A stretch of 64,000 nucleotides of DNA from an archaeon UBA583 (GTDB lineage Archaea; Nanobdellota; Nanobdellia; Woesearchaeales; UBA583). Under the pieces are notes generated by a model. It was not told the DNA's origin. It made no database searches and saw nothing but the letters and a program-made list of their open reading frames with translations. The stretch covers positions 6,301-70,300 of the forward strand of contig DAXK01000045.1 of the NCBI GenBank assembly GCA_002506365.1, in the 5' to 3' direction. How positions within the stretch are numbered: position 1 is the stretch's first letter; every line of letters starts with the position of its first letter. Position numbers and translations under genes: made by a program. Of this stretch, positions 1,501 to 53,917 are shown piece after piece.

Positions 1501-1606
1501 TATTTTTGGCTTTGTCAAAAATTAATTATCTAAATTATTTTTTATTTTTAATAACAACTAACACTTACAACAAATCTTTAAAACATTAAAACACAAATTT
1601 TAAATT

Positions 1607-3139: not shown

Positions 3140-3147
3140 AATTAATT

Positions 3148-6666: not shown

Positions 6667-7086
6667 ATGTATAACTCTTTAAAAAGTAAAAAAGCAGTTC
6701 ACCCTGTTGTATCAGTTGCCCTTTTATTAGTTGTAGCAGTTGTATCTGTTGTTGGTTTCCAAGGATGGTTTAGTTCATTTTCAACAGAAGTTTTAGTAAG
6801 TGTCGAACAAGACACAAATACTCAAATCCCTAGTGATATATACGTTGAAGGTTTAAGTTCAAACAAGATATTTTTAAAATCTCACTCTGGAGCATCAACA
6901 ATCACAAATATTGAAATTCTAAGTGAAAATAAAACTCAAATGTGTATTTTGCCAATAAATTCTAAAATCACAAAAGGTGTATCTCCAATTGATGTTTCAT
7001 CTTGTTCATTAATTTCAAATAACGTTTATGAAATTTTAATTATCGCTAATAACCAATTAGTTCAAAATACAAAAATTGCTAGATAA
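6667..7086 (+). CDS. Small archaeal type IV pilin-like protein (class III signal peptide)
   Basis: SKKAVHPVVSVALLLVVAVVSVVGFQGWFSSFSTEVLVSVEQDT shares about 70 aa of N-terminal module with ORFs 4777, 51629 and 39935(-). Confidence 0.65.
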   Translation: MYNSLKSKKAVHPVVSVALLLVVAVVSVVGFQGWFSSFSTEVLVSVEQDTNTQIPSDIYVEGLSSNKIFLKSHSGASTITNIEILSENKTQMCILPINSKITKGVSPIDVSSCSLISNNVYEILIIANNQLVQNTKIAR

Positions 7087-23579: not shown

Positions 23580-23912
23580 ATGAATTTAATTAAAAATTTA
23601 AAAAAGAGAGGTCAAGCTTTACCATTAAATACAATTGTAATCGCAATTTTAGTAATAATTGTATTATTAGTAATTATTGTATTTTTCACAACAGAAGTAG
23701 GTAAAACTGGTGATCAATTATCTGAAAACTCAGCATCTAGTTGTTCAATTTCAAATCCAGCACTAGCAACACTAGGTTACACAGGATTTATCTCAAAAGA
23801 TAAATTTGATCAAACTCCTGGAGATTATAAAAAAGCTGTTGGAGTTTCAGACTGTTATGTAAGTAAAACTCAAACTGATACTTGGACTGCTTCAGCTCCA
23901 ACTACAAATTAA
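23580..23912 (+). CDS. Type IV pilin-like protein (class III signal, KRGQ|A cleavage-type site)
   Basis: NLKKRGQALPLNTIVIAILVIIVLLVIIVFFTT has a basic leader, a G-Q-A cleavage-type site and a hydrophobic helix. Confidence 0.6.
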   Translation: MNLIKNLKKRGQALPLNTIVIAILVIIVLLVIIVFFTTEVGKTGDQLSENSASSCSISNPALATLGYTGFISKDKFDQTPGDYKKAVGVSDCYVSKTQTDTWTASAPTTN

Positions 23913-24036: not shown

Positions 24037-24342
24037 ATGAAATTACTAACAAATTTTAGAAAAAACGCTCAAGCATTACCATTAAACACAATTGTAATTG
24101 CTATTTTAGTAATCATTGTATTATTAGTAATCATTGTATTCTTTACAACAGAAGTAGGAAAAACTGGAGAACAACTTTCAGAAAACTCAGCATCAAGTTG
24201 CTCACTATCAAATCCAGCACTAGCAACATTATATGACTCAATTCAACCTGTAGCTGAAGGTCAAACATGTGAAGATGCTGGTTGGGTCGACCACAAACTA
24301 GCTGGAATTGTTCCTGATTGTTGTGTAAAAAAACAAAATTAA
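24037..24342 (+). CDS. Type IV pilin-like protein, tandem paralogue of 23580..23912
   Basis: The first roughly 60 aa are nearly identical to the preceding gene (about 90% nt identity over about 180 nt). The C-terminal roughly 40 aa are unrelated. Confidence 0.6.
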   Translation: MKLLTNFRKNAQALPLNTIVIAILVIIVLLVIIVFFTTEVGKTGEQLSENSASSCSLSNPALATLYDSIQPVAEGQTCEDAGWVDHKLAGIVPDCCVKKQN

Positions 24343-36062: not shown

Positions 36063-39000
36063 TTAATCATTTTTATCATCTCTCTTTAAATATTTTTTAT
36101 TATTAACAACATCTAAAGCCTCCAAAGTTTTTTTTTCATAATAATTATCCAATATCTCAAAAGTTCTTTTCTTACTAAAATTAATTTTATTATAAATAAA
36201 AAATCCACAAATAAACAAAATCAAAAATATGCTAATATACCCCTCAACCCTAAATGTTTGATTACTACTTAAAACCTTAATAACATTTCCTCCACTTAAA
36301 CTACTATTTGTATTATTATTAGTATTCAATTTATTCTCTCCAAAAAATCCAAAATCTAAACTATTCTTATCATTCAAAGTAATTTGCTCAGAATTCAACT
36401 CTAAAACAACCCCATGTTTTAATCCATAAATTAAATATAAATCATTCCAATTATCACACCTTAAACTATTAAAATATTTTCCATCACAAGTTAAAACAAA
36501 TTCATTATTTTCTAAACAATTTTCAGAAACATCACTAACACTATTTAAACTCCCTGAATACTTAACACAAACTTTATTCAAATTATTTTTATTTTTTAAA
36601 TAAATAACTGGATTTGTAACTAATTGAGTCAAACCTGAAACAATAACATAATTACTTTTATCACCTAACTCATCACTCACAATATTTAATGTTTCCAAAT
36701 TTAAATTAGAATAATTAAAATTAAACTCAAAACTAACTATCTTTAAATTATCAACAATTAAATCAATACTTTTAATACTCTCAAACTTAGAACTTTCATC
36801 AATTTTTTTTAAATCAACTAAAACATCAAAATTACTCAATTCATTAAAAAAAATCAAATTTCCATTTCCATCTCCACTATTAAAATTCTGAGTATCCACA
36901 AAAACATTATCCGAACTTAAAGATTTTTTTTTATTTTTTCTACTACTAGAACCTCCTCCACTACTTTTAACAACAGTAGAAACTATTTCACAACTCTGAG
37001 AAAGGTTCTCCCTTGTAAAACTAGTCCCGCAAGAGTTCAAATCAATAGCACTTCTTTTCATAACCCCATTATCACAACTAGACCAACTAGAATACTCCCA
37101 ACTCTCAGAACACATCTGATAAACTGCTGAATGAGTTAATCCTGAAACAAAAACAAATATTTTATTATCTTTATATTTTTTCTCCACCTCATAATTATTA
37201 TACTCAAATGGGAAGGAATTAACATAATACTCATAAGACCCATTACAACTCAAACTAAAATTAAAATCTTCAACAAAATTATCACTCAAACAAACTCCAG
37301 AATTCTTATTCTTATCACCAATTAACTCAAAACGAATAGTCTTACTCTCATTATTAGATAAATTAACTCCCGAAATAAATAATTTAGTTAAATTATTAAA
37401 ATTATTTGTTTCAAATTTAATATTTGATAAATTTATAGATTTATTATCATAAAGCTCAAAATTAAATCTATTATTTGAATTATTATCATAAAAATATAAA
37501 TTATTATTATTTCTCTCAACTGACAAATTCAAATTAATTTCTCCAAATAAACTCAAATTAAACTTATCTTTATCTAAAAATCTTTCAAAACTTAACTTAT
37601 GTAAAATAAATCCATCTAAAGTTTTTTCATAAATCTCAAACCCAAAAAAATAAATCTCAGGAGAAATATTAAAAACTCCATTATAAGAATTATTCAAAAC
37701 TTTATCCGATAAATCAATATACTTATTCTCAAAACCTAACTCTATATACTTAAACAAATTCCCATTTTCTAAAAACTCATCAGAAAAATTAATCTCAAAC
37801 TCAAACTCACTTTGATTACTTAAATTAAAATAAAATAAATCTTCATTATTATAACCATTCTCCTCAGACTCCCAATAACTTAAATTAATTAAATAATTAA
37901 ACTCTAAAGGTAAAATCTCTTTAATCTCAGAATTAACTTTAGAAACTACAACTGAAAATGATTGATTCTTTAAAGTTGTAATATTAAATCCATAAACAGA
38001 TAAACTATACTCTCCTAAAACCAATTCATCAGAATTTACAACAATTTGTTCAATATTATTTAATCTATCAAAATCTCCCTCATCAGAAAAATCATTCCCT
38101 AAATACTCAACACCATCCTCAGATACAACCCTTAAATCTAAATCATTAACTAAACCTAAACCAGGATAATCAGACCAAACCAAAGTTAATTTTAAATCTG
38201 AACTTAAATTTGTAACATTAAAACTATAATTAAAAACTCCTCCATGTCCAATCCCAACTAACTCATCAACAAATATTAACTCACGATTATTACTCTCATC
38301 AACAGAACCTTTCAAATCCACAACTCCAAAACCATAAACATTATCTGGTCCAACAACTCCATTATCCTTAGCCCCATTAATTAATGCAGCTTTAACCAAA
38401 CTTGAAGACACAACATCAAAACTTTTATTTTTAATTAAATACTCTCTAATCAAAGCACTAACTCCCGCAACTAAAGGTGCTGCCATAGAAGTTCCACTTT
38501 TACTTTGATAATCTCCAGACCCTGATGCAAAACTTGAACGTGTAGATGTAACAGAACTTCCCAAAGCCACAATATCAGGCTTAAACCTTCCATCCTCAGT
38601 TGGTCCACGAGAACTAAATCCAGCAATATTAAATCCATCTGAACTAGTTGCTCCAACCGCAATTGAATTTTTACTAGAAGACTGTAAAGTAACACTACTA
38701 CCTCCAGAACTCCCATAATTCCCTGTTGCCATAACAATAGTAAAATCAAAATTATTGTAAATAAATTCATCAATATCATAAGAATGAGATAAATATTTAC
38801 CCAAATTATTTCTATTTCCCCAACTATTAGAATGAACTCTAACTCCTTGATCATAAGCTGGACCAAATAAATTATTTAAATTATTTGGAATTGAAAGAAC
38901 ATATTTATTATAATAATTCCCACAATACATAGAATTATCACACAAAATCTCAATTGCTTGAAAAAATAATCCAGCTAATGGAGCAGTTCCAGATTTTGAA

Positions 39001-39617
39001 CTTGAAAAATTCCTACTAATAATGTCCGAACCTGACAAAACACCAGTCCCAACAGCAGACCCAGCTACATGAGTCCCATGCCCATTTACATCAGAAGTTC
39101 CATCATTATTTAAATTTCCATCTCCAACCTCATATAATATTACAGTTTTATTTCTAAAATCATTATGAATATTTGATAAATCTCCAGTATCTAAACCAGT
39201 ATCAGAAATTCCAATAATTTGACCTAATCCATACAACCCAAAATTATCAAAAAAATAATTAACATTCAAAAACTCTTTTCCCTCCACATTTTGTTTAACT
39301 GGGAAACTAAAATTTTCAACAAATTCAACATACTCAAGTTCGGAAATAATATTCACACTTAAACTATCTAAACCAAACCTAACTCTATTCTCAGAAACTA
39401 AAAATATTTCCCCTCCTAAATTTAAAATATTATTTGATAATTCTAAAACAAACTCATCAGAAGATAACTCAACTAAATAGACTTCAAAATCATTAGAATT
39501 CAAATTAATAAAATTATTATCATTAACTTGAAGTTTTTCATCATATTCACTAAACCCAAAAAAAAAAGAATTTACAAAAAAGATAAATAAAATAAATAAT
39601 TTTATTTTTTTTAACAT
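36063..39617 (-). CDS. Second giant (1184 aa) membrane-anchored subtilisin-like serine protease (S8), paralogue of 29563..34062
   Basis: GISDTGLDTG, HGTHVAGSA and GTSMAAPLVAG. It shares a Cys-rich module with the first protease (GLTHSAVYQMCSESWEYSSW..DLNSCGTSFTRENLSQSC vs GLSHSGVSQMCTEDWSYGSW..DLNSCGTSYTRESLVQSC). C-terminal TM plus tail. Confidence 0.85.
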   Translation of the reverse strand: MLKKIKLFILFIFFVNSFFFGFSEYDEKLQVNDNNFINLNSNDFEVYLVELSSDEFVLELSNNILNLGGEIFLVSENRVRFGLDSLSVNIISELEYVEFVENFSFPVKQNVEGKEFLNVNYFFDNFGLYGLGQIIGISDTGLDTGDLSNIHNDFRNKTVILYEVGDGNLNNDGTSDVNGHGTHVAGSAVGTGVLSGSDIISRNFSSSKSGTAPLAGLFFQAIEILCDNSMYCGNYYNKYVLSIPNNLNNLFGPAYDQGVRVHSNSWGNRNNLGKYLSHSYDIDEFIYNNFDFTIVMATGNYGSSGGSSVTLQSSSKNSIAVGATSSDGFNIAGFSSRGPTEDGRFKPDIVALGSSVTSTRSSFASGSGDYQSKSGTSMAAPLVAGVSALIREYLIKNKSFDVVSSSLVKAALINGAKDNGVVGPDNVYGFGVVDLKGSVDESNNRELIFVDELVGIGHGGVFNYSFNVTNLSSDLKLTLVWSDYPGLGLVNDLDLRVVSEDGVEYLGNDFSDEGDFDRLNNIEQIVVNSDELVLGEYSLSVYGFNITTLKNQSFSVVVSKVNSEIKEILPLEFNYLINLSYWESEENGYNNEDLFYFNLSNQSEFEFEINFSDEFLENGNLFKYIELGFENKYIDLSDKVLNNSYNGVFNISPEIYFFGFEIYEKTLDGFILHKLSFERFLDKDKFNLSLFGEINLNLSVERNNNNLYFYDNNSNNRFNFELYDNKSINLSNIKFETNNFNNLTKLFISGVNLSNNESKTIRFELIGDKNKNSGVCLSDNFVEDFNFSLSCNGSYEYYVNSFPFEYNNYEVEKKYKDNKIFVFVSGLTHSAVYQMCSESWEYSSWSSCDNGVMKRSAIDLNSCGTSFTRENLSQSCEIVSTVVKSSGGGSSSRKNKKKSLSSDNVFVDTQNFNSGDGNGNLIFFNELSNFDVLVDLKKIDESSKFESIKSIDLIVDNLKIVSFEFNFNYSNLNLETLNIVSDELGDKSNYVIVSGLTQLVTNPVIYLKNKNNLNKVCVKYSGSLNSVSDVSENCLENNEFVLTCDGKYFNSLRCDNWNDLYLIYGLKHGVVLELNSEQITLNDKNSLDFGFFGENKLNTNNNTNSSLSGGNVIKVLSSNQTFRVEGYISIFLILFICGFFIYNKINFSKKRTFEILDNYYEKKTLEALDVVNNKKYLKRDDKND

Positions 39618-39934: not shown

Positions 39935-41557
39935 TTAACTTGCTATAAGTTCATATGAATCAAAAAAAACATCAGTTCCAACTTGAAATATATTTAATTC
40001 ATTATGAGTGTCAGAACCTTCAAAAATTAAATTAATGGAATCATTAATTGGATTAAATTCATAAATTTTAGGACCTATTCCCCCTCCTTGTGGACTCCAA
40101 TATTTTTGAGTGATATATAATTTATCTCCAAATTGATACATCTCTACTTGATCTCCAACATTTAAATATCCATCAAATGTTGAAACCATTGAAAAAGTAG
40201 TTCCATTAAATTTTCCAACATTATAATCAGTTGACCCATCATCAACTCTAAAAATAAATAATTCATTTCCAATCTTAAAAATTTGAGAATTTGAACTTGT
40301 AAATGTATTTAAACTTCCACCTCTAAAATCTGTAACTCTTGTAATTGTTGACCCATCATATTCAAATAATTCTTGTCCAGTTGACCCATCATTATGAATA
40401 AAATATAATTTTCCATTTAACTCAGTATATTCATAAGGTCTAGTAAAACTATCTCCTGGTCTAATATCTTGAACAAGATTTGTAGTAACTCCATCTGATT
40501 CCCAAACCTCAAAACCTTGTGAACCATTTCTTGCACTAAACACTACTTTATTATTAAAAACAATTAAATCTCCAGTCAAACTATCTCCAACTCCAGAAAC
40601 AATATCTGCAACATTTGTTGTAACTAATGAAGTTGTTGTTTTATATAATTCATTTCCAAAAGTAGCAGAATTTCCTGCAAAATATAAATCTCCATTATAT
40701 GGAGTTAAACTTCCAAAATACCCACTCTCAGAAGCTCCAGGATAATAATCTTGATCAAAAGAAATAGTAGTTCCATCAAAACTAAATAATTCTTGTTCAC
40801 TAGATCCATTTTTAGAAATAAAATAAATTTTATTATTAAACTCTGTAATAGATGAAACCATTACATAACCAATAATTGAAGTTGGAATATAATCAACCAA
40901 ATTTAAACTTGGAGGAGAAGTTAAAACTTCATAAACTCCTGCTTTAATAGAATCATTATAATAAAATAAATAATTTTTTCCATTAAAAGAAAAAGAATTT
41001 TTACTAAATAACTGACCTAAATTTAAATTATGTTCAACTAAATTAGTTCCAGTGATTTGAGTATCTCCTTGACCTCCCTTTAATTCATTATCAACAAACT
41101 TATAACTCTCAAAAATCCCATCATCCGTAACAACAACAATATTAGCTGACCCAGAAACATTATCCAAACAACTTGAAATATTAACTGAATCTAAACCTGA
41201 AACACTACCATTAAAATTACAATCAACATCATTAATTTTAATAGAATTAATAGAAGAATTCCCAGCTGAGTTTACATATAATTTTTCTCCAACTAATCCT
41301 TCAACAGTCACAGAGTTTGAAGAGCTAGTTTGAGTTTCAACATCCACAAAAACTCCAGAACTAAATGTTGTGAACCAACCTTGAAATCCAACTACAGCAG
41401 TTACAGCAATTACTAAAAGTAAAGCAGTAGCTACAACTGGACTTATAGCTTTATTACTATAAATTAATTTTTTTATTTTAAATTTAAACATAAATATTAA
41501 TTTAATTTTTTTCATTATAAATATTTTGTTTATATAAAATAAATAACTAAATAACAA
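39935..41557 (-). CDS. Pilin-like (class III signal peptide) protein with ELWxxDGT-type beta-propeller repeats; the real start is probably an internal Met (about 41515 or 41491)
   Basis: KAISPVVATALLLVIAVTAVVGFQGWFTTFSS. Repeats ELFSFDGTT, GFEVWESDGVT and ELFEYDGST, each spaced by about 45-50 aa. Confidence 0.6.
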   Translation of the reverse strand: MLFSYLFYINKIFIMKKIKLIFMFKFKIKKLIYSNKAISPVVATALLLVIAVTAVVGFQGWFTTFSSGVFVDVETQTSSSNSVTVEGLVGEKLYVNSAGNSSINSIKINDVDCNFNGSVSGLDSVNISSCLDNVSGSANIVVVTDDGIFESYKFVDNELKGGQGDTQITGTNLVEHNLNLGQLFSKNSFSFNGKNYLFYYNDSIKAGVYEVLTSPPSLNLVDYIPTSIIGYVMVSSITEFNNKIYFISKNGSSEQELFSFDGTTISFDQDYYPGASESGYFGSLTPYNGDLYFAGNSATFGNELYKTTTSLVTTNVADIVSGVGDSLTGDLIVFNNKVVFSARNGSQGFEVWESDGVTTNLVQDIRPGDSFTRPYEYTELNGKLYFIHNDGSTGQELFEYDGSTITRVTDFRGGSLNTFTSSNSQIFKIGNELFIFRVDDGSTDYNVGKFNGTTFSMVSTFDGYLNVGDQVEMYQFGDKLYITQKYWSPQGGGIGPKIYEFNPINDSINLIFEGSDTHNELNIFQVGTDVFFDSYELIAS

Positions 41558-42166: not shown

Positions 42167-44047
42167 TTATAACGTTTCTCGACCAATCTTTTCATATAAT
42201 TTATAATACCAATCAACAAATCCATAAACTTTCAAATTTACAGGCATAAAAAATCCTAAATCATCCTTTTTAGCAAAATTATCTAAAAATAAACTAGCAT
42301 CAGCTTTATCTAAATAAACTTTAAATAATTGTTCATAATTTTTAATTGTCCATCCCGCAAACTTATTAAAACTCTCTTTTGACATATCAATCTTAAGGTT
42401 TTCATTTTCACAATCAAAATTTAAAACTCCAGTTTCAAACAATCCAGTTAAATGAACTAAACCTTCACAATAATATGGCCAAACTGATTTAGTTTTCTTC
42501 CAAGCAATTAATTTTACAGCCCTCTCAACAACATCATAAAAAACTTCTTTCCAATAAGTTTCAACTTCATCTGATTTAAAAAAAGAAACTAAACCTCCAG
42601 TTGTAGCTTTATATTCCTCAATATTTTTAAAATTTCCAGACCCATTCATCTTAATTTCAGAATCACATCCTTTCCATAAAATATGTCCAAACTCATGCCC
42701 AATTGTAGAAATTGAATATATTTTATGCCAAATATCAGGAGTTTCACAAGCAACTTTTTTCAATTCATCTAAAAACTCTTTTCCAAAAACTTTATTAGAT
42801 AACTTCATATTTGGAGCAGTTTTCTCTAATTCTAAAATAAAATCAGCAAAAGCAAAAATTTTCTTTCCTCTCTTAGAACTTACAAATTCATCATTTGGAA
42901 CAACTTGAGCTGAAAAAAATCCATGAAAAAATTTTGCAAAATATAATAATGGTTTTCCAACATATAATTGAACATTATCTAATCCCTCAAGTGAAACAGA
43001 CTTAATATCTAAAATATTATTACAATCCAAACAATTTGAATCATTACTTAAATACTCATTATACATACTTTTTGTAGCAGATACAACTGTGCTAGCATCA
43101 TTTCGCTTAGGATTTACAACTCTTAAATCCCACTCAATCTCCACACAATTTCTAATATTATCATTATAATACTCCATACAATGTCCTACTTGAATTGGAC
43201 AATCAACATCCATCCAAGCAAAATCAACATCACGCCAAACAGAAATTAAATTATCGCAATCTCTTTCAGATAAAGCATGAATTAAACTCTCAAAATACTT
43301 ATTCCAATTATCTTTCATATCAAAAACATCATCAGACAATTCATCTAAAACTAAAATTAAATCATGTAACTTAGAACAAATCTCATCAACTTCAACTTCA
43401 AAAAATTCTCCATAACTTTGAGTTGAAAACCCACAACTTGAATCTTCATCTTCAACTAAAATTGAATAACTTCTATCTCCAATAGATCCATCAGGTAATT
43501 TATCCATTAAATTATTCTTATGAACAAAGCTAATAGCTTCTTGAACTTTATTATCAAATTTATTTAACAAAATAGAATTAATCTCATTTATAGCAGAATC
43601 CCAAGAAACATCTAATTGAGTAAAAGAAATACCAATTGATTTCACACCTTTAATTAATTCTCGATAAAATGGAGTTAATAACTCTTTTTCCTCCATTTCA
43701 TAAATTAATTCTTCAAACATTGAAATATGATAACTTCCAGCCCAACTATAACTAGATGCTAATATCTCTTTTTTAGATTCTGCATCTAAATCATTACTTT
43801 CAATTTCAGAAATTAAAAAATCATCCTTTAAAGTAACTAATCTACGAATTACAGATAATCTATTTTTATCATTTTTTTCAAACTCAATTGATTCTAAAAA
43901 ATCATCAATAAATTTAGCTTTTTTTTTATCTCCAAACTCATTTTCTTCAAAACACTTGTAAAAAGAATTCAAATTAGCATTTAAGCCATTTGAAATCTCA
44001 TAAACCTTTTGTAAATCATTCATAAAATCAGTTTTTAAATCAGTCAT
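42167..44047 (-). CDS. Large cytoplasmic protein with an HEXXH zinc-metallopeptidase motif (626 aa)
   Basis: ..SISTIGHEFGHILW.. followed by acidic residues about 20-25 aa downstream (..NIEEYKATTGG..), which is gluzincin-like. No signal peptide. Family not recognised. Confidence 0.45.
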   Translation of the reverse strand: MTDLKTDFMNDLQKVYEISNGLNANLNSFYKCFEENEFGDKKKAKFIDDFLESIEFEKNDKNRLSVIRRLVTLKDDFLISEIESNDLDAESKKEILASSYSWAGSYHISMFEELIYEMEEKELLTPFYRELIKGVKSIGISFTQLDVSWDSAINEINSILLNKFDNKVQEAISFVHKNNLMDKLPDGSIGDRSYSILVEDEDSSCGFSTQSYGEFFEVEVDEICSKLHDLILVLDELSDDVFDMKDNWNKYFESLIHALSERDCDNLISVWRDVDFAWMDVDCPIQVGHCMEYYNDNIRNCVEIEWDLRVVNPKRNDASTVVSATKSMYNEYLSNDSNCLDCNNILDIKSVSLEGLDNVQLYVGKPLLYFAKFFHGFFSAQVVPNDEFVSSKRGKKIFAFADFILELEKTAPNMKLSNKVFGKEFLDELKKVACETPDIWHKIYSISTIGHEFGHILWKGCDSEIKMNGSGNFKNIEEYKATTGGLVSFFKSDEVETYWKEVFYDVVERAVKLIAWKKTKSVWPYYCEGLVHLTGLFETGVLNFDCENENLKIDMSKESFNKFAGWTIKNYEQLFKVYLDKADASLFLDNFAKKDDLGFFMPVNLKVYGFVDWYYKLYEKIGRETL

Positions 44048-44129: not shown

Positions 44130-44873
44130 TTGTGTTACTTGCTACATATTTTAAACAATCAATTTATATTCACAAAACTTAACTTTATTATATATAAAAT
44201 TAATAAATTAATAAATAGACAATTTTACAAAACCAAAATGGATTTAAAATTAAAAATAAAAAAAATATTATATCAATTAAGTATTATATTTTTCACATTA
44301 TCTTTTCTCACAATAATTGGGACTTCAAACTCTGAATCAGTAATACTTAAAACTCATAATGAAAATATCCCTAAACAACTATTTGATATAACATTTAATA
44401 TATATAAAAACCAAATTGGAGATATAGAACAATTATCAGGATATGGAACATTTGAAAATTTTGGATATGAAACAACACAATTACAATATACTCTAATTTT
44501 ATATGATTCTAATGTTCAAAAAGTATTATCAGTTGATAAAATAATTACTGTTCAAAGCCAAGAATCTCTAAGTTTTGAATTTGAAGAATTTAAAGATTTA
44601 GAACTTGAACCTGGAAAATATTCTATAGTATTAAGCACAATTTACAACACAGATGTAAAAGATATATTTATTCAAGATTTTTATATTTCTAATTTTTATA
44701 AAGATTCTATACAATTTATTTTATTTGTAGTATTTACAATCTTAATCTTTTTTACAATGTTCTTTATAGTTTTTGAAGTTAAAAAAGGTAAAACAAAAAA
44801 AGAAAATAAATTAATTATAAAAGAATATTTAATTAAAAATAAAAAAAAGAAACTAAAACCTAATAAAAAATAA
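44130..44873 (+). CDS. Membrane-anchored protein (N-terminal TM or signal, beta-rich ectodomain, C-terminal TM plus basic tail), paralogue of 49740..50522
   Basis: Shared motifs with ORF 49740(-): FDI.F..Y, GTFENFGYE/D, EEFKD. ELEPG aligns with NLSVG. Both have a C-terminal TM segment. Confidence 0.45.
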   Translation: MCYLLHILNNQFIFTKLNFIIYKINKLINRQFYKTKMDLKLKIKKILYQLSIIFFTLSFLTIIGTSNSESVILKTHNENIPKQLFDITFNIYKNQIGDIEQLSGYGTFENFGYETTQLQYTLILYDSNVQKVLSVDKIITVQSQESLSFEFEEFKDLELEPGKYSIVLSTIYNTDVKDIFIQDFYISNFYKDSIQFILFVVFTILIFFTMFFIVFEVKKGKTKKENKLIIKEYLIKNKKKKLKPNKK

Positions 44874-44919
44874 ATTTAATTTAAATAAATTTAAATATTA
44901 TAAATTCCATAAATATATT

Positions 44920-45498
44920 ATGAGTTTAGAAAATCCAAAATTACACTGGTATAATCAACCAAAAACAAATACAACTGGTTATAAATTATCAGGTAAATTT
45001 GATTACATTACAGTAGCATCATCACCAATGGAAGATGGAATCACATTAGAAATTGCAAATTCAATCAAAAATTACATAAATGTTTCATCCACCCCATACC
45101 AAATGAATTCATACAATGAATCAATAAATGCAAACTTTCATTGGTTTCCAATTTCAGAATTGGGATTTATGGGTTTTAATACAATTTATGGTTTTATTAA
45201 AACTATGGAAAAAATCGATAAATACAAACAAAAATCAATTATCCACTGTGAAGCTGGAACAAACCGAAGTCCAACTATGGCAATGCTTTGGTTATTATAC
45301 AAAAATGATAATAATCTTAAAAAAGCAAAATCATTCACACCTTTAGAACTAGACCTTGATTCAAAAGTTAAAGGAAACATAGAACTAGGATTAATTCCAT
45401 CTTTAGAAGATTTAAATTTATTTTTTAATGGAATAAAAAAAGATAGATATTTAGATGATATTTTATTTAATGATACAGATTTAGGAAACAAATATTAA
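44920..45498 (+). CDS. Protein-tyrosine/dual-specificity phosphatase-like protein
   Basis: CX5R active-site signature IIHCEAGTNRSPTMAMLWLLY (HCxxGxxRS). Confidence 0.65.
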   Translation: MSLENPKLHWYNQPKTNTTGYKLSGKFDYITVASSPMEDGITLEIANSIKNYINVSSTPYQMNSYNESINANFHWFPISELGFMGFNTIYGFIKTMEKIDKYKQKSIIHCEAGTNRSPTMAMLWLLYKNDNNLKKAKSFTPLELDLDSKVKGNIELGLIPSLEDLNLFFNGIKKDRYLDDILFNDTDLGNKY

Positions 45499-45523
45499 AT
45501 AAATAATTTTTTTAATTAATTAA

Positions 45524-46384
45524 TTATTTATTATCTCTAGTATGAATTTCAAATAATTCATCTTCAATTTCATCTAAAAAATCATCAATGTCTTTATCTG
45601 GATGTTCCTTTTGAAATTTCTCAAAAGCATCATCATACTTATACACTTCATAAGGATTATCTCCACCATAAATTTCATACTCAATAGAATTAATGAATTT
45701 TTTAAAATCCATATCCGAATCTTCTTTTTGTAAATGTTCTAACCTTTTAGAAAAAGATTCAACAGATTTTTCTAAATCTCCTTGTTTTACATGTTCAGGA
45801 CCTTTAAAATTAAATGTAGGTAAAATTCCAACTCTATCAAAAACTCTAAATACTCTACCATAAACTAATCCTCCAGTCTTTAAAATATTAGAAGCTTCTT
45901 TATCATAAAACTCATAAACATTCTTATCAAAAATTCCCTCTAATTTAATAAAAAAAGTTTCAAAATTTACATCTTTAACTTGATAAATCCCAAAATGAGA
46001 ATTATCTTTTAATTGTTTTAAAAATAACTTTTCAGTTTCAGTAAAAATTCCAGCTCCTAAAATATCATCATACAAAAACTTATCTTGGTCTTTAATTTTT
46101 GCTCGTAACAATAAAAATTCAATAAACCTAAAACTAAACTTATGTTCATTCTTATCATCCTTTGGAACATTTGAATATACTTTATAATGTTCAATATACT
46201 CTTTTAAATCAAACTTTCTATCAAAATAATTAATACACTTCCCATACACATCTCTTAATAAAAAATTTAATTTATACGTATCTAAAGCTTCTTCATTAAC
46301 ACCTGAACCGTGACAAACTTTAAACTTTTTACCAGAATTACAAAAACATGGTCTATTTTCAGAAACAATAATCTTACTATTCAT
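45524..46384 (-). CDS. SEC-C motif-containing protein (286 aa)
   Basis: N-terminal CFCNSGKKFKVCHG matches the SEC-C metal-binding motif (CPCGSGKKYKxCCG). The rest is unrecognised. Confidence 0.5.
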   Translation of the reverse strand: MNSKIIVSENRPCFCNSGKKFKVCHGSGVNEEALDTYKLNFLLRDVYGKCINYFDRKFDLKEYIEHYKVYSNVPKDDKNEHKFSFRFIEFLLLRAKIKDQDKFLYDDILGAGIFTETEKLFLKQLKDNSHFGIYQVKDVNFETFFIKLEGIFDKNVYEFYDKEASNILKTGGLVYGRVFRVFDRVGILPTFNFKGPEHVKQGDLEKSVESFSKRLEHLQKEDSDMDFKKFINSIEYEIYGGDNPYEVYKYDDAFEKFQKEHPDKDIDDFLDEIEDELFEIHTRDNK

Positions 46385-46526
46385 AAAATAAATCTACAAA
46401 CAACATATTATAAAACTTTGTGAGCACATTATGTCTAAATAAATTATCTTATTAATATAATAAAATACACAAAAAATATTAAAAATAAAACTAAAAACTA
46501 AAAACTAAAAAATAATTTGAATATAA

Positions 46527-47342
46527 TCATTCAATAATTACTTTAATAGTTTCAGTATGATAAACTTCACCATTTGTTAAAACATAACCAACTCTAAAAT
46601 AATTAACTCCCTTCTCTAACTTTTTAGTTAAAATATCAAACTTATGTTCATTAACATCTTGTCCAACAAAAACAGCAGAAGTTTCAGGATAAGTCATATC
46701 AGGATTATCATTAGAAATTAAAACCTTATAATACTTAAACATCTCCTTATCATCTAACTTTTCCCATTCAACAGAAACTAATTGTTTTTCTTTATCATAC
46801 TCAACTTCAATTCCATCAGCTTCAAACTCTAACTCATCATCCTCTCTTTGATCTTCAAAATCCTCATTTTCAAACTCTTCTTCATCAGATTCATCTTCAA
46901 ATCTTTCCCTTTCTAATTCTTCTAATTCCTCTTCTAATTCTTCAATCTCATCAAGCATTTCATTATACTCTTCTTCAAGTTCCTCAAATTCTTCTTCTAA
47001 CTCATCAATCTCATTAAATTCTTCATCCAATAAATCACCTAACTCATTTTCAGAACCAATTTCTTCATCATTTTCAAAATCTTCAAAAACTTCATCAACT
47101 AAATCATCCTGATAATTCTCATCACCATTTTCATTAACTTGTTCATCTCTATCACAAATATTATTGTTATCAACATCCAAACAACACTCAATTCCAACTC
47201 TAATATATGGAGCATTACAAACTACTGCTTTTTCTGAAATTCTTGCAAGATCTTCATCTGAAACTTCAGTTAAATCTACACCTGCACAACCTGTCAAAAA
47301 CAAAGTCCCTAACATTGTAAAACCAATACTTTTCTTTTTCAT
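46527..47342 (-). CDS. Acidic lipoprotein (lipobox LTGC) with a Cys-rich segment and an extreme E/D-rich region
   Basis: MKKKSIGFTMLGTLFLTGC|AG. CNAPYIRVGIECCLDVDNNNICD. About 90-aa E/D-rich low-complexity tract. Confidence 0.45.
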   Translation of the reverse strand: MKKKSIGFTMLGTLFLTGCAGVDLTEVSDEDLARISEKAVVCNAPYIRVGIECCLDVDNNNICDRDEQVNENGDENYQDDLVDEVFEDFENDEEIGSENELGDLLDEEFNEIDELEEEFEELEEEYNEMLDEIEELEEELEELERERFEDESDEEEFENEDFEDQREDDELEFEADGIEVEYDKEKQLVSVEWEKLDDKEMFKYYKVLISNDNPDMTYPETSAVFVGQDVNEHKFDILTKKLEKGVNYFRVGYVLTNGEVYHTETIKVIIE

Positions 47343-47444
47343 ATTTGATTTTTTAAAAATTTGACTTAAAAAGATTTGTTACTTTAAAAATAAAATCTAA
47401 TATAAATAATTATATAAAACTCAACATAAAAAACTTAAAATTCT

Positions 47445-48734
47445 TTATTTAAATTCTACAATACCTGAATATAAAAAATATAAAAATTGATGATAATTAA
47501 TTGGTTCCAAAGTTAACTTAAAATCCTTTTTTCTAACTAATTTATACAAACTATCTTTTCCAGCATTATAACTAACTCCAATCATAAACAAATCAATATA
47601 ACTAAAAGGATGAGTCCCATAAATATTAATATCTAACTCTTGCATAAAATTAATTAAATTTAAAATTCCAGCCTCAATTAATTCATCATCACTAGCAGAA
47701 CTAAAATTTTTCTTTTTAGTAAATCTTTCATAAGTTTTAGGCATAACTTGAATTGGTCCACGAGCCCCAGCATGAGATGTGCTAGAACCATACCCATAAG
47801 AAGTTTCAATTAAACATAATAAATTAACTAATTTAGAATTCACATTTAATTTATTTGATAACTTATCAATTTTCTCTCTTAACTGAGGATTTAAAGAAAC
47901 TGAATTAATTGAAAACTTAGTAATTTCACTTAATTTATGAATATTAATATCTGACAACTCTAAACCTTTTTTATTAACATGTCTAAGCAATCTTAACAAC
48001 AATTTATCAGAATCTTCTTTTGAATAAATATAATCAATAATTTTTTTTTCAATTAATTTAGGGTAATCTTTATAATTCACACCTTTATCATTCATAAAAA
48101 CTCTCAAACTAGAATACTTAATTTCATTAATCTTATTATTAAACCAATTAATTTCAGAATCAACATCACCGAGCAAGGAACCTAAATTCTCAAATAAATA
48201 TTTTTTAACCAAAACTGAATAATACCTATCTCTCATAAGTAAAAATAAAATTCTTAAATCTTCCAAAAAATTTTTCTTTAATAATCCTTTTTCAATATTT
48301 AAATTTTGTAACATAATCTCAAAAACTGGTTTTAAAACAAATCCATTTTCACTATAAAAATTCGATCTTGATATTCCCATATACAAAATTCCCATAATAA
48401 AATTATATCCCTGTTCATCTAATTTTTCTTTAATAATTTTTTTCTTTTGATAAAAACCAGCATTACTATAACCTGCTGGAAAATTAAACTCATACCAAAC
48501 TGAAACATAATAATCAAATAAAACTTGACACTCATCAACACTTAACTCTTCTTTAAAATGTAATTTTTTAATAACATAAGATAAATCAATTTTATCATTT
48601 GAACTTAAATTACCACTTTGATAACTAGAATTTGAACTTAAGCTAGGTTCAGCACTAATTTTACCTGAACCAAAACCAGCAGCTAAAAGACCAGTTCCAA
48701 ATATTTTTTTTAAAAAACTTCTTCGAGTATCCAC
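47445..48734 (-). CDS. Tat-secreted protein with a C-terminal lytic transglycosylase (SLT, GH23-like) domain
   Basis: Twin-arginine signal MDTRRSFLKKIFGTGLLAAGFGSGKISA. SLT catalytic region ..LIETSYGYGSSTSHAGARGPIQVMPKTY.. (compare ES....S.AGA.GLMQ.MP.T). Confidence 0.6.
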   Translation of the reverse strand: MDTRRSFLKKIFGTGLLAAGFGSGKISAEPSLSSNSSYQSGNLSSNDKIDLSYVIKKLHFKEELSVDECQVLFDYYVSVWYEFNFPAGYSNAGFYQKKKIIKEKLDEQGYNFIMGILYMGISRSNFYSENGFVLKPVFEIMLQNLNIEKGLLKKNFLEDLRILFLLMRDRYYSVLVKKYLFENLGSLLGDVDSEINWFNNKINEIKYSSLRVFMNDKGVNYKDYPKLIEKKIIDYIYSKEDSDKLLLRLLRHVNKKGLELSDINIHKLSEITKFSINSVSLNPQLREKIDKLSNKLNVNSKLVNLLCLIETSYGYGSSTSHAGARGPIQVMPKTYERFTKKKNFSSASDDELIEAGILNLINFMQELDINIYGTHPFSYIDLFMIGVSYNAGKDSLYKLVRKKDFKLTLEPINYHQFLYFLYSGIVEFK

Positions 48735-48902
48735 AATATAATCTAAAAAAAGAATATTTTATTTATAAAAAAATGTCACAACAAAATAAACTACAAATTT
48801 TAAATACAAACTATTAAAATATTACTAGAAAAACTAATAATATTTTAACCACAAAAGAATTAAGCAAAACTTAAAATATTTAATTTAATAAAATTAATTA
48901 AT

Positions 48903-49616
48903 TTATTTTTTAGAATTTAATTTTGATTTTTCACTACATTCCAAATCATTTAACCAATTAATAACTAAATCTACTCCAATCTTATAAAAAAAATTAGTTA
49001 AATCATTAATCTCCTCAAAACTAGAACTCTTAGCAGACTTTCCACCATGAACAATTGAATGCCTTTTTCCTAAAATTACTCGTAATCTATCAATTCTTCC
49101 TTTTTCCAAATCAAGTAACTTAAAAAAATCTAAACCAATTAAATCAAATGCTTTTCTAATTGAATCTAAATTTTGAAACTTATAATTTTGTGAAATAATT
49201 TCTCCCTTTGTAATTTTCCCATCTTTATACAAATCAATTTCAGAAAATGTAAACTTTTTATTAAAATCCAAAACACCTTTTGACTCAGAAAATTTATGAT
49301 TAATTAACTCAACAAATAAATCTCTAAAAAAACTCTCAAAATATGTAATTAAAGAAGTTAAATACAAATTATAATTTATATTATATATATTCTCATTAAT
49401 TAAATTTTCATGTGAAGTTTGAACAATACTTCCAAGTAACGAACCATCCATAGATGAAGAAATAGAATTTACATCAAATTGTTTAAAATAATGATTTAAA
49501 TTATCTTGAAATTCCATATGTTTATCTTTTAACAAATTATGTCCAGTTGAACTAAATTTAATTCTAGTTAAATTAGAAAAATAATTCTCAACAGGATAAG
49601 TAATATTTTTATTCAT
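48903..49616 (-). CDS. Hypothetical protein with a possible C-terminal HEPN-like Rx4H motif
   Basis: ..ILGKRHSIVHGG.. gives R-x4-H in a predicted helical context. Otherwise unrecognised. Confidence 0.3.
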   Translation of the reverse strand: MNKNITYPVENYFSNLTRIKFSSTGHNLLKDKHMEFQDNLNHYFKQFDVNSISSSMDGSLLGSIVQTSHENLINENIYNINYNLYLTSLITYFESFFRDLFVELINHKFSESKGVLDFNKKFTFSEIDLYKDGKITKGEIISQNYKFQNLDSIRKAFDLIGLDFFKLLDLEKGRIDRLRVILGKRHSIVHGGKSAKSSSFEEINDLTNFFYKIGVDLVINWLNDLECSEKSKLNSKK

Positions 49617-49739
49617 AAATATACCTAAAACAACCTAAATTATAAAACTTTTCTATAAATAAATTAAATAAAATAAAATAAATAAATTCTATAAATAATA
49701 TAAACATACTTTAAGTAAATTTTATTTTTAAAATAACTA

Positions 49740-50522
49740 TTAACTTTCATTAGACTTCATAGCATTAATAATATTAAATAAAATAAAAACAAAAACCATA
49801 AAACTTACAATATATATAACAATATTCAAATTATCCTTCATATTAATTTGCTTTTCTTCACCCTCAATAATTCTAAAACTTTGAGAAAATTTATCAGTAA
49901 CATTATCTCCATAGTTAGTAATAAAAATAAAATCATACAATCCAACACTTAAATTTACATCTTTAAACTCTTCTAAATCAAAATTAATTAATTCATTAGT
50001 TTCAACTACTAAACTTCCTGTAATCTCCTTTAACATAGTTTGTTGAAAATCAACTAAAACTAAACTATAATTTACTGGGGTTGGATCATATCCAAAATTT
50101 TCAAAAGTTCCAATAGCTCTAAGTTCATTAACAAAATTAACAACTGACCCATAAACTCTAAACTCAATATCAAATAAATCTTTAGGAACAATCTCAACTT
50201 CTTCACCCTCCTCAATCTCTTCAAAAATAACTTTATAACCATTATATTTCAAATTTGGCAATTTATCTTCATTATCTAAAAACTTTAAAGTCCAATTACT
50301 CGATTCAGGATAAAAATTAGAATTTTGTTTTAAAGATTCTACACAATTCATATTTTTTGTTAAAATAAAATACTCTGATTCAGATTTAGTTGAAATATAC
50401 AATTCTTCACAAGTTGTAATATCAAATGGTCTAAGAGAACTTCCATCACCTCCAACATAAGAATAAATATAATTAAAATTAAATAATATCATTATCGTAA
50501 CTAATATTATCTTTTTAAACAT
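49740..50522 (-). CDS. Membrane-anchored protein, inverted paralogue of 44130..44873
   Basis: GTFENFGYD, EEFKD, C-terminal TM IVIYIVSFMVFVFILFNII. See 44130. Confidence 0.45.
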   Translation of the reverse strand: MFKKIILVTIMILFNFNYIYSYVGGDGSSLRPFDITTCEELYISTKSESEYFILTKNMNCVESLKQNSNFYPESSNWTLKFLDNEDKLPNLKYNGYKVIFEEIEEGEEVEIVPKDLFDIEFRVYGSVVNFVNELRAIGTFENFGYDPTPVNYSLVLVDFQQTMLKEITGSLVVETNELINFDLEEFKDVNLSVGLYDFIFITNYGDNVTDKFSQSFRIIEGEEKQINMKDNLNIVIYIVSFMVFVFILFNIINAMKSNES

Positions 50523-50703: not shown

Positions 50704-51489
50704 TTAATTTAAAATATGTAATAAAAACTTATCACCAAGTGAACCCATTAATTCTTGAGAAGTAGTTTTAAACTCAATACATCCAGTCTCTGAATCATAC
50801 AAAACTTCATTACTTGTATAATCTGAATCAAATAAAATCAATTTATTAGAAAGTGTTGAATCAGCACAAGTAATTTCATCAGAACTAATAATATCTTCTA
50901 AAGCATTTAAAGGAAATCCAAACCCAATACTCATTAAAGTATATAATCTTCCAGAAACTTTCACAACAGCCCCATTACTTGAAGGTTTTGAATTAAAAAT
51001 AAAATCAAAAGTTTCAGTCTCAAAAAATTCTTCTTTACTAATTCCAATTTTATAATTTAATTTTTCAATATCATCTAAATTATTATAAAACTGCATATTA
51101 ATAGTTTTCCCATCTACCTCAAAAGGATATTTATATATTTCAACATTTACTTTAGTTTCTTCAGACTTTTTAGATGAAGATTTTTTAGTTTCAACTATTT
51201 CCTTTTTTTTAATTTCTTCCTTAATTTCTAAAACTTCTGATACTAATTCCTCATTAGTTGAATCCTCTTTAACAATTTGAGGTTTTTCTTTAACTTTTTC
51301 AATTATTTCTTCAGATAAAGTTTCTTTTTTCTCAATTTCATCAGCAATATTTTCAACTTTTTTTAAATCTGAATTATTAACATTTTCAACAGAATTATTT
51401 AAAATTTCACTTGAATTCACTTCTGAATTAACTCCAACACATCCTGCAATAAACGCAATAAATATTAATAAAATAAAATTTTTATTCAT
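50704..51489 (-). CDS. Lipoprotein (lipobox IAGC) with a K/E-rich linker
   Basis: MNKNFILLIFIAFIAGC|VG followed by a low-complexity KEEIKKKE region and a C-terminal globular domain. Confidence 0.45.
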   Translation of the reverse strand: MNKNFILLIFIAFIAGCVGVNSEVNSSEILNNSVENVNNSDLKKVENIADEIEKKETLSEEIIEKVKEKPQIVKEDSTNEELVSEVLEIKEEIKKKEIVETKKSSSKKSEETKVNVEIYKYPFEVDGKTINMQFYNNLDDIEKLNYKIGISKEEFFETETFDFIFNSKPSSNGAVVKVSGRLYTLMSIGFGFPLNALEDIISSDEITCADSTLSNKLILFDSDYTSNEVLYDSETGCIEFKTTSQELMGSLGDKFLLHILN

Positions 51490-51628: not shown

Positions 51629-51967
51629 ATGTCATATCATTTTATTATGAATACATTTAAAATTAGAAAAAATAAACATGCGATATCTCCAGTTGTTGCA
51701 ACAGCACTACTTTTAGTTGTAGCAGTTATTTCAGTTGTAGGTTTCCAAGGTTGGTTTACTCAATTTTCATCCTCAACATTAGTAAATGTAGAATCACAAA
51801 GTTCAAATTCTTTAACTTCAAATTCAATTGAAGGGATTTACGGAAACAATTTATATATTAAATCTGGAACAAATAATTCTCCATTAAAATCAATTAATAT
51901 TGGTGGAGAAGATTGTCAAATTAATGAAAATTTGATAAGGTTTAATAAAATAGAAAATTCCAAATAA
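51629..51967 (+). CDS. Small type IV pilin-like protein (class III signal); probable start at the internal Met (about 51647)
   Basis: KNKHAISPVVATALLLVVAVISVVGFQGWFTQFSSSTLVNVESQSS shares the N-terminal module with ORFs 4777, 6667 and 39935(-). Confidence 0.6.
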   Translation: MSYHFIMNTFKIRKNKHAISPVVATALLLVVAVISVVGFQGWFTQFSSSTLVNVESQSSNSLTSNSIEGIYGNNLYIKSGTNNSPLKSINIGGEDCQINENLIRFNKIENSK

Positions 51968-52105: not shown

Positions 52106-53917
52106 TTATTTTAAAGCCGCTAGAGCTTCAAAATCATCAAGCATCCCTTCAATAACTGAAAGTCCACTTTGAAAATACTCTGGCTTAGAAATATCCATTC
52201 CAATCGTTTTCTTAACTAATTCAGCAGGAGGCAAACTCCCTCCAGACTTTAAAAACTCCTTATACTTAGGAATAAAACTTTCCCCTTCTTCCTTATACTT
52301 ATTATACAAAGCAAAAGTTAAAATATTTCCAAAACTATAAGCGTAACAATAAAACGGACTTCTAAAAATATGAGGAATTGAACTCCAAGTTGAAGTCTTA
52401 TCACCCTCAACTCTTACAATTGCATCTCCACTCATCTTATTAACCTCTTCTCCCCAAGCCTTATTAAAATCCTCATAACCAAGCCCCTCACCTGAATGAA
52501 TTGCCTTATGACATCTTCTCTCAAATAAAATATATTGAATTTGTCTATGAATAGTTGCAAAAGTACTCCCTAAATTTTCATCTAAATAAGATAACTTCTC
52601 ATCATCAGACATTTGACTCATTAAAGTCTCCGACAAAATCATCTCATTAAACACTGAAGCAGTCTCAGCTAAACACATCCCAGTAGAATAAACTTCCGCC
52701 TCTTGAGCTTGTGATAAATGTCCATGTGTAGCGTGTCCTAACTCATGAGCAAGTGTAGAAACATCTCCTAACTTATTAGTCCAATTTAATAAAACATAAC
52801 TCTCAAATCCTTTATCATAACAAGCAAACGCTCCACCTCTCTTCCCCTTCCCAGGAAAAACATCAACACGCGCATTCTCAAACATATTAACAGAAAAATC
52901 ATAAAACTCAACATCAAACTTCTTAATCGTATCTAAAAATAATTTCAAACCATCTTCAAAAGTATATTCCTTCTCAACCTTATCTAATGGAGCCATAACA
53001 TCCCAAACATTTAATTTATCCTTCCCCATTAACTTAGCCTTAATCTTTAAATACTTTTGATACATAGGATAAGACTTTTCAACTTCAGATAATAAAGTAT
53101 CAACAACATCATCGGAAAGCTCCTCAGACTTATTTCGACGACTCATAACATGGTCATATCCACGAATATTTAATTCACTAGTACAATCCTTTAAAATATT
53201 AGAATAACAATTACCTAATACAATTTGCGTCTTCTCATCTTCAAAAACTTCACGAATAGATTCATAAGCATTCTTACGAACTCTCTCATCAGTAGACTGT
53301 CTTAAAGCTCTAACCTCTGAATCAGTAACCATCTTATCTTCCTCAGTTTCAAAATCATGAACCTTAAACTCAAAAGAACCTGTCAATTCTTCATATAAAC
53401 TTGAAAAAGCAGACTTACCACCACTTGGAGCCTTAAACATTAAAGCCTTCTCAGTCTTCTCATCTAAAACATACTTAATACTTTGAGCAGTTTGATAGAA
53501 ATAATTCTTCCAAGCAGATAACTCTGGCAATTCAGATAATCTAATTAAATCATCATATCCTCTAGCCTTAAACTCTTGCCCTACAAAAGTTAAACCATTA
53601 AAAATTTCAGTAAATTTGTGAGATAACTCTCCTTGTTTCTTTAAAATATCTTGATTTTGAGTATCTAAACTACTTGTATATAACATAAAAATTTGAATCT
53701 TTGAAACAATTGTTCCATACTCATTTTCATCGGCAAAAAACTCAACAAACTTATCGTCAGCCAAACCAGAAATTTTCCCAGTATATTTAGAAATAAAACT
53801 ATCAACAAGAGAAGATATTTTATTCACATCTTCGGCAATTTGCGGATCAGCAACACTAGTATAATAATCTTTCATATCCCAACTTGTTTTAGCATTTTTA
53901 ATATTAAATTCACTCAT
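52106..53917 (-). CDS. pepF: Oligoendopeptidase F (peptidase M3B)
   Basis: TLAHELGHATHGHLS (HEXXH) in the M3 context. 603 aa. Confidence 0.85.
   Translation of the reverse strand: MSEFNIKNAKTSWDMKDYYTSVADPQIAEDVNKISSLVDSFISKYTGKISGLADDKFVEFFADENEYGTIVSKIQIFMLYTSSLDTQNQDILKKQGELSHKFTEIFNGLTFVGQEFKARGYDDLIRLSELPELSAWKNYFYQTAQSIKYVLDEKTEKALMFKAPSGGKSAFSSLYEELTGSFEFKVHDFETEEDKMVTDSEVRALRQSTDERVRKNAYESIREVFEDEKTQIVLGNCYSNILKDCTSELNIRGYDHVMSRRNKSEELSDDVVDTLLSEVEKSYPMYQKYLKIKAKLMGKDKLNVWDVMAPLDKVEKEYTFEDGLKLFLDTIKKFDVEFYDFSVNMFENARVDVFPGKGKRGGAFACYDKGFESYVLLNWTNKLGDVSTLAHELGHATHGHLSQAQEAEVYSTGMCLAETASVFNEMILSETLMSQMSDDEKLSYLDENLGSTFATIHRQIQYILFERRCHKAIHSGEGLGYEDFNKAWGEEVNKMSGDAIVRVEGDKTSTWSSIPHIFRSPFYCYAYSFGNILTFALYNKYKEEGESFIPKYKEFLKSGGSLPPAELVKKTIGMDISKPEYFQSGLSVIEGMLDDFEALAALK

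Follow-up and report, generated by a model that had tools for sequence, protein, structure and literature searches.

SLT-domain proteins have already been reported from DPANN archaea, and earlier notice of such proteins is said to be found in Rinke 2013 and Castelle 2015. For those of Pacearchaeota and Woesearchaeota, it has been proposed that they bind or degrade bacterial walls (PMC8204110). The Ribo L-PSP-HEPN family has been described as a bacterial family, distantly related to AbiD and AbiF, whose members mostly occur as fusions to L-PSP or share an operon with ParB (Anantharaman et al. 2013, PMC3710099). A gene of each of these kinds lies in a block of seven open reading frames (ORFs) at positions 44130-50522 of the window, i.e., the whole 64,000-nucleotide stretch of DNA that was analyzed (contig DAXK01000045.1, positions 6,301 to 70,300). 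The block runs from gene A, at its left end on the plus strand, to gene B, at its right end on the minus strand, and the initial annotation had regarded it as a cassette or island bracketed by these two inverted paralogues. The comparison with related lineages leads to another reading: the block is, in all likelihood, an ordinary, vertically inherited and loss-prone chromosome stretch of a reduced, AT-rich DPANN genome, and its genes probably act independently of one another.

Gene Order in Related Lineages

All seven ORFs of the block are present at the positions first assigned to them, and the start of A alone was corrected. The genes of the block and those that frame it are listed below, with coordinates in the window (aa, amino acids; TM, transmembrane segment).

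42167..44047, minus strand: DUF7897 protein, conserved left frame gene, divergent from A (Pfam DUF7897, E = 1.6e-190)
44238..44873, plus strand: protein A, predicted type-I membrane protein with signal/anchor, a stalk of ~110 aa modeled as an Ig-like beta-sandwich, one TM and a Lys-rich tail
44920..45498, plus strand: DSPc phosphatase, Cys-based dual-specificity/protein-tyrosine phosphatase with HCEAGTNRS
45524..46384, minus strand: SEC-C protein, 286 aa, predicted cytoplasmic, with N-terminal SEC-C zinc motif CFCNSGKKFKVCH
46527..47342, minus strand: acidic lipoprotein with lipobox LTG|C, coiled-coil-like acidic middle and conserved beta-rich C-terminal domain
47445..48734, minus strand: SLT-like protein, 429 aa, with putative twin-arginine-type signal MDTRRSFLKK, orphan helical N-terminal region of ~280 aa and C-terminal SLT domain
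48903..49616, minus strand: HEPN protein, 237 aa, solo RiboL-PSP-HEPN with conserved 70-aa N-terminal extension
49740..50522, minus strand: protein B, with signal, N-terminal head of ~85 aa holding 2 Cys, acidic linker, modeled A-type Ig-like stalk and TM
50704..51489, minus strand: 261-aa lipoprotein (lipo261) with lipobox IAG|C, just outside the block and part of the conserved frame
52106..53917, minus strand: M3 oligoendopeptidase, conserved right frame gene (Pfam Peptidase_M3, 1.2e-47)

Homologues of HEPN and SLT led to relatives, as did a genome scan with a DUF7897 alignment; together these gave five related lineages. A genome contig scan with the single DUF7897 protein returned 22 pattern matches and 0 confirmed relatives; its repeat with the alignment returned two loci. 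Read from the M3 peptidase (M3pep) to DUF7897, the gene orders are the following.

Window: M3pep, pilin, lipo261, B, HEPN, SLT, acidic lipoprotein, SEC-C, DSPc, A, DUF7897
L005 (frame genes 68-86%): M3pep, three small ORFs, lipoprotein, HEPN, acidic lipoprotein, SEC-C, DSPc, A, DUF7897; without B and SLT
L006-L009 (one arrangement, four samples): pilin, M3pep, OTCase, lipoprotein, GNAT, HEPN, SLT remnant, SEC-C, frameshifted A, DUF7897
L010 (Nanoarchaeales metagenome-assembled genome, MAG): 98-aa ORF, B, SEC-C, A, DUF7897; A and B inverted, SEC-C alone between them
L012: SLT, unrelated inserted 259-aa gene, acidic lipoprotein
L093: acidic lipoprotein adjoining an A-like gene

It is readily apparent from these orders that the block is neither kept nor missing as a whole: four different subsets of its genes occur within one syntenic frame. 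In relatives, the genes of the supposed cassette vary one by one, irrespective of A and B, and the inverted paralogues are not conserved as boundaries. L005 keeps four of the five inner genes without B, whereas in L010 both A and B are retained and flank SEC-C only. In L006-L009, B, an intact SLT gene, the acidic lipoprotein and DSPc are all missing. The spacer between HEPN and SEC-C in L006 (L006:6450-6576) contains about 150 nt homologous to the 3' end of the SLT gene, with the stop codon kept and with frameshifting indels. The SLT gene was therefore formerly present in this lineage and was then deleted, which is a loss and not a gain. Protein A of L006 is likewise split by a frameshift, and a matching 99-aa gene call occurs in three further samples. 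The identity between L005 and L006 amounts to 85.5% for SEC-C and 73.5% for DUF7897, the window and L010 falling outside; judged by these values the two are sisters, which implies that B was lost once. SLT, DSPc and the acidic lipoprotein have been lost repeatedly.

No gene of the block is better conserved than SEC-C, which no relative lacks; its orthologues share 74-78% identity in L005, L006 and L010 and 52% in L094. HEPN orthologues (71-76%) are found in L005 and L006-L009, and none is present in L010. Protein A has orthologues of 59-63% in L005 and L010, in addition to the frameshifted copy in L006, and B has one of 43% in L010, being absent from L005 and L006. The phosphatase orthologue in L005 shares 51% identity, and the gene is absent in L006 and L010; orthologues of the acidic lipoprotein occur in L005 (53%), L012 and L093, and are absent from L006 and L010. 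Regarding the frame genes, the identities are 68-71% for DUF7897 (L005, L006 and L010), 86% and 77% for the M3 peptidase (L005 and L006, respectively), and 47-48% for lipo261 (L005 and L006).

The variation continues beyond the A-B interval, since both the space between lipo261 and M3pep and the region past DUF7897 differ among the lineages. OTCase, GNAT and small ORFs account for it at one end; past DUF7897, it involves 277-aa or pilin-like genes. In L006, an OTCase/ATCase-family carbamoyltransferase (2727-3686) and a GNAT acetyltransferase (5051-5626) are located within the M3pep-HEPN interval, indicating that housekeeping-type genes also move in and out of this neighborhood.

The interval would thus be a stretch of chromosome with a conserved peptidase gene on each side (DUF7897 and M3, respectively), for which the window preserves the fullest and probably ancestral gene set, different genes having been shed singly in sister lineages. 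Such one-at-a-time losses fit reductive evolution. A and B would stand at the two ends of the interval by chance, and the seven genes are expected to act independently, mostly from their own promoters and without a joint mechanism. The minus-strand intergenic spacers within the block measure 102-181 bp, from which we infer that the genes other than DSPc probably have promoters of their own. A distance of 46 bp separates A from the phosphatase gene downstream (21 bp in L005), and the two are probably co-transcribed. The term "accessory" used for the block at first is fair, because several of its genes are dispensable among relatives; the accompanying idea of a single joint module is unsupported.

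Base Composition, Repeats and Mobility Genes

The GC content of the block is 0.238 and that at third codon positions (GC3) is 0.123, compared with 0.263 ± 0.033 and 0.141 ± 0.035 for the other genes, so the deviation in GC or codon usage that could be expected of an island is not observed. One pair of inverted repeat arms was found.

44444..44508 and 50048-50112: inverted repeat arms, 65 nt, 80% complementary, corresponding to the A/B coding homology around GTFENFGY

This candidate was rejected as a terminal repeat, being A/B coding homology, and the other repeats are AT-rich noise. A similarity of just 65 nt at 80% is, furthermore, too little for homologous recombination between A and B. No integrase or transposase Pfam domain was found among the block proteins, and neither tRNA nor Rfam RNA was found in the 64-kb window. 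The PADLOC scan matched no defense system; matches of the SEC-C zinc motif to "E2" models and low-complexity matches of the acidic protein were rejected as meaningless. Scans of viral contigs with the HEPN and SLT proteins returned no relatives.

Proteins A and B

The mechanical ORF of A reaches TTG 44130, but the true start is probably ATG 44238, giving a protein of 211 aa, in line with the gene call of JGI and with orthologues of 213 aa. In both A and B, a hydrophobic signal at the N-terminus precedes an ectodomain, which is followed by a C-terminal TM. Their description as clear paralogues with a shared layout in inverted orientation is confirmed (BLASTP E=1e-23, 32% identity over 148 aa). 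The domain common to both proteins spans ~110-118 aa (window 44352-44699, plus strand, and 49857-50210, minus strand); its hidden Markov model scores 138 and 125 bits on A and B, and it is confidently modeled as an Ig-like beta-sandwich. A and B would be two anchored type-I surface proteins that share a membrane-proximal Ig-like stalk, B bearing an extra 85-aa head.

A profile of the 118 shared residues recovers 484 representative clusters at E<=1e-3, of which 297 reach E<=1e-10. The proteins carrying the stalk domain range from 128 to 5591 aa, and some of them contain tandem copies (proteins P0007-P0154). Roughly 40 examples were inspected, and in nearly all of them a single TM with a K/R-rich tail follows the domain at a distance of ~5-25 residues; some carriers are giant proteins with Laminin_G_3, Big_7 or GLUG domains. 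The characteristic motifs are QLFDI, FESFG..PTPV, GKY and YN.DV.DEF.Q.F. No Pfam family covers the stalk domain itself, which constitutes an undescribed family. A word-indexed homologue search with B returned B itself only. When neighbors are ranked, A is 10th of 34 for B, and B is 27th of 34 for A. Not being each other's closest relatives, A and B are two old, distant members of a large family and not a duplicated boundary pair. A by-product of this work that may be useful is a widespread, uncharacterized membrane-proximal beta-sandwich domain of surface proteins without a Pfam entry, whereas the other components of the block belong to known families.

Proteins Encoded between A and B

Profile searches run on each protein assign most members to the families that had been guessed from the sequence, and together with the motifs they bear out the gene-by-gene identifications of the initial annotation: a CX5R phosphatase of the protein-tyrosine (PTP) or dual-specificity (DUSP) type, a SEC-C motif protein, an acidic lipoprotein, a predicted SLT lytic transglycosylase with a putative twin-arginine translocation (Tat) signal, a possible HEPN protein and the paralogous membrane proteins.

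For the phosphatase, Pfam DSPc is matched at 36.7 bits, above the gathering threshold (GA) of 33.5, and HCEAGTNRS fits the HCX5R(S) P-loop. The nearest solved chains are 5z5b ("Protein-tyrosine phosphatase") and 9e9l ("ShufPTP"), with E=1e-3. The gene product is thus predicted to be a PTP-type Cys phosphatase.

In the SEC-C protein, the Pfam SEC-C match (26.6 bits, E=5.6e-6) exceeds the GA of 20.4, and four orthologues show the CxC-x8-C-H zinc motif without change. For the ~260 aa outside it, no known family or domain is matched, and the PDB matches are confined to the SecA zinc motif (SecA C-terminal peptides). A scan of metagenome contigs with the SEC-C alignment gave 80 loci matching only residues ~1-75, i.e., the ubiquitous zinc motif, and 0 full-length orthologues. 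The gene product is likely a conserved cytoplasmic zinc-motif protein.

The acidic lipoprotein has an isoelectric point (pI) of 4.05, 33.9% D+E and five Cys. Its earlier description as an extremely acidic, Cys-rich lipoprotein holds for the acidity and for the lipobox LTGC, while "Cys-rich" is generous for only 5 Cys. NCBIfam Rad50/SMC and Pfam coiled-coil matches were rejected as compositional. The orthologue in L005 shows weak fn3 matches. This lipoprotein is presumably a surface protein.

The assignment of the SLT-like protein depends on the segment considered. The whole protein scores 19.2 bits against Pfam SLT (PF01464, GA 21.3), whereas the C-terminal 149 aa alone reach 22.4 bits and thereby pass the threshold; the 75% orthologue P0156 (L012) scores 21.0. 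P0156 was the one orthologue returned by a word-indexed homologue search. SLT family members are recognized by a catalytic Glu followed by Ser/Thr, a GLMQ-like motif and an AYNAG-like motif. In the window protein and P0156, E310-T-S, G326-P-I-Q-V and Y389-N-A-G are invariant. Weak matches to PHROG lytic tail proteins fall on the SLT segment in both proteins. PDB sequence searches, with the single sequence or with a profile, gave no match even at E<=10, and the AlphaFold model from a 2-sequence alignment has a pLDDT (predicted local distance difference test) of 33.6. The twin-arginine motif reads TRRSFLKK, and TRRNFLKK in the orthologue; TIGR01409 is matched at 14.4 bits, with a cutoff of 16.7, and no gene in the annotated parts of the window is listed under a Tat family. 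To our knowledge, archaea have no murein. Consequently, bacterial peptidoglycan is the most likely substrate of this predicted exported lytic transglycosylase.

The HEPN protein matches Pfam PF18735 (HEPN_RiboL-PSP) at 40.4 bits, above the GA of 28.4. The Rx4H motif, which had been suggested as a possibility, is present as R185-H-S-I-V-H190, and RHxIVH is invariant in four orthologues. A PDB search returned chance matches only. Considering that it is solo and has no conserved partner, the protein is probably a stand-alone stress or defense endoRNase, related to AbiD/F.

Host, Flanking Genes and Other Features of the Window

The 64-kb window has a GC content of ~25% and represents a very AT-rich archaeal chromosome segment. 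It encodes A-type ATPase subunits, FEN1/XPG, ArgRS, Dus, large S8 peptidases and several pilin-like proteins with class-III signals. An identical sequence is found in JGI sample 3300003107 and in NCBI whole-genome shotgun set AYRE01. Among named genomes, the closest is "MAG: Nanoarchaeales archaeon DT_72" (L010), with 69% identity for the DUF7897 protein. On this basis, the host is a DPANN archaeon related to Nanoarchaeia, in agreement with the earlier proposal as far as the archaeal host is concerned.

The DUF7897 protein may be a zinc metallopeptidase, as suggested by its HExGH (GHEFGHILW), which is invariant. A contig assigned to a Pseudomonadota bin (L011; 39.6% GC) encodes a homologue of 40% identity and has no neighboring genes in common. 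Two giant S8 subtilases, at 29563-34062 and 36063-39617 (both on the minus strand), are paralogues of 1499 and 1184 aa that lie 2 kb apart and share 44% identity over 543 aa; S8 relatives adjoin DUF7897 in L005 and L006. Four pilin-like genes with the class-III signal peptide N-terminus AISPVVATALLLV are located at 4777-6528, 6667-7086, 39935-41557 and 51629-51967, and two of the four sit just beyond either end of the block. Two small tandem paralogues on the plus strand, 23580-23912 and 24037-24342, encode 110 and 101 aa with 66% identity and have no Pfam match on record. From 19000 to 54000, a strong and sustained negative GC skew coincides with mostly minus-strand genes, and there is no switch at the block.

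Alternative Explanations

Three observations weigh against the reading of the block as an ordinary stretch of independent genes. First, it depends on five related lineages, all but one of which are fairly close (~70-86% identity, frame genes); at such distances gene order would be conserved in any case, which makes it a poor guide to functional linkage. Second, SEC-C adjoins an A/B-family gene in every locus that holds SEC-C, including the 52% relative L094. There, SEC-C (2-766, minus strand) is next to an A/B-family gene (919-1698, plus strand), an MFS transporter replaces DUF7897, and the remaining neighborhood differs (MFS, GNAT, ParE). This lasting adjacency may hint at a link between the two genes. 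The A-family neighbors L095-L097 were left out of the context comparison, their contigs being too short. Third, of the eight genes that span A to the 261-aa lipoprotein, five encode exported or membrane proteins, which could point to a loose surface or host-interaction neighborhood.

The boldest form of such a neighborhood takes the window as the ancestral, complete host-contact region of a Nanoarchaeia episymbiont, in which the SLT and stalk proteins act on the bacterial wall, and SEC-C, owing to the adjacency kept down to 52% identity, is a dedicated cytoplasmic partner of the A/B family. We regard it as unlikely.

A related possibility is a non-mobile, functionally coherent host-interaction locus, where A, B, the two lipoproteins and the exported SLT protein cooperate at the contact with a bacterial host, with the phosphatase and SEC-C as cytoplasmic partners. 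The neighborhood is indeed rich in exported and membrane proteins, SLT adjoins the acidic lipoprotein in two lineages, SEC-C keeps its A-family neighbor as far as the distant L094, and the SLT proteins of Pacearchaeota and Woesearchaeota have been proposed to act on bacterial walls (PMC8204110). However, relatives drop SLT, the acidic lipoprotein, B and DSPc in differing combinations, housekeeping genes are interleaved in L006, and spacers of 100-180 bp argue for separate promoters. Moreover, the whole window is rich in surface proteins (pilins, S8 peptidases, Laminin_G proteins), so the local enrichment is not special. Cooperation of these proteins in one locus is accordingly rated as quite improbable.

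It is very unlikely that the block is a small defense island or hotspot centered on the HEPN RNase, of the Abi or toxin-antitoxin kind, with the neighboring genes as partners. The relationship of the HEPN_RiboL-PSP family to AbiD/AbiF (PMC3710099), the conserved Rx4H motif and the variability of the region would suit it. Nevertheless, no PADLOC model matches the HEPN protein, and neither MNT nor any other antitoxin-like small ORF adjoins it. Its neighbors are B and SLT in the window, a lipoprotein and the acidic lipoprotein in L005, and GNAT and the SLT remnant in L006, none of them MNT, L-PSP, ParB or restriction-modification (R-M) genes; R-M, ParB and CRISPR genes are also missing from the annotated parts of the window.

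Finally, a discrete accessory cassette or island delimited by A and B, moved as a unit (perhaps through A/B recombination) and forming one host-interaction or conflict module, is scarcely credible: A and B do lie in inverted orientation, the 64-kb window contains no third member of their family, A and B persist near each other in L010, and some relatives do without genes that lie between the two, but the differing subsets retained in L005 and L010, the piecemeal deletion recorded by the SLT remnant in L006, the short similarity between two distant family members, the lack of integrase, tRNA, repeats and compositional shift, and the variation outside the A-B interval all stand against it.

If the reading of the block as an ordinary, loss-prone stretch is right, the false lead of a new system bounded by inverted paralogues is removed and little else changes. 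The block then serves as a documented case of gene-by-gene loss in a reduced DPANN genome.

Comparison with Known Systems

The block resembles prokaryotic genomic and defense islands in being a dispensable, poorly conserved and partly conflict-related cluster between conserved core genes. It differs from them in having no integrase, tRNA, flanking repeats or compositional deviation. Unlike islands that are exchanged as a block, its genes are lost singly, and housekeeping genes occupy the interval in a relative.

With the small PTP and dual-specificity phosphatases 5z5b and 9e9l, the window phosphatase shares the DSPc fold family, the HCX5R(S) P-loop and a similar size; the similarity reaches only E=1e-3, however, and the gene is dispensable in two related lineages. 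The SEC-C protein has the CxC...C-H zinc motif in common with the SecA C-terminus, YchJ and YecA. In contrast to these, its motif is N-terminal and the other 260 aa contain no known domain. We know of no archaeon with SecA or SecB. As a further by-product, the locus provides a SEC-C-motif protein that keeps company with the stalk-domain family.

The HEPN protein passes the Pfam threshold of the Ribo L-PSP-HEPN family and keeps its Rx4H endoRNase motif. In contrast to the bacterial members linked to L-PSP or ParB (PMC3710099), it is archaeal and solo, bears a 70-aa N-terminal extension and has no L-PSP or ParB neighbor.

The SLT-like protein can be compared, by description, with the extracellular murein-like lytic transglycosylases of Pacearchaeota and Woesearchaeota assigned to fam00969 (Castelle et al. 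2021, PMC8204110). Both have an SLT-type domain, are exported (by prediction for the window protein), belong to small-genome DPANN archaea without murein and presumably target bacterial peptidoglycan. In contrast to fam00969, whose members reach ~3000 aa, the window protein comprises 429 aa, with a putative twin-arginine-type signal and, in its N-terminal part, an orphan helical region. This small SLT-like protein thus joins the DPANN lytic transglycosylases, which bear on whether some of these archaea live on bacteria.

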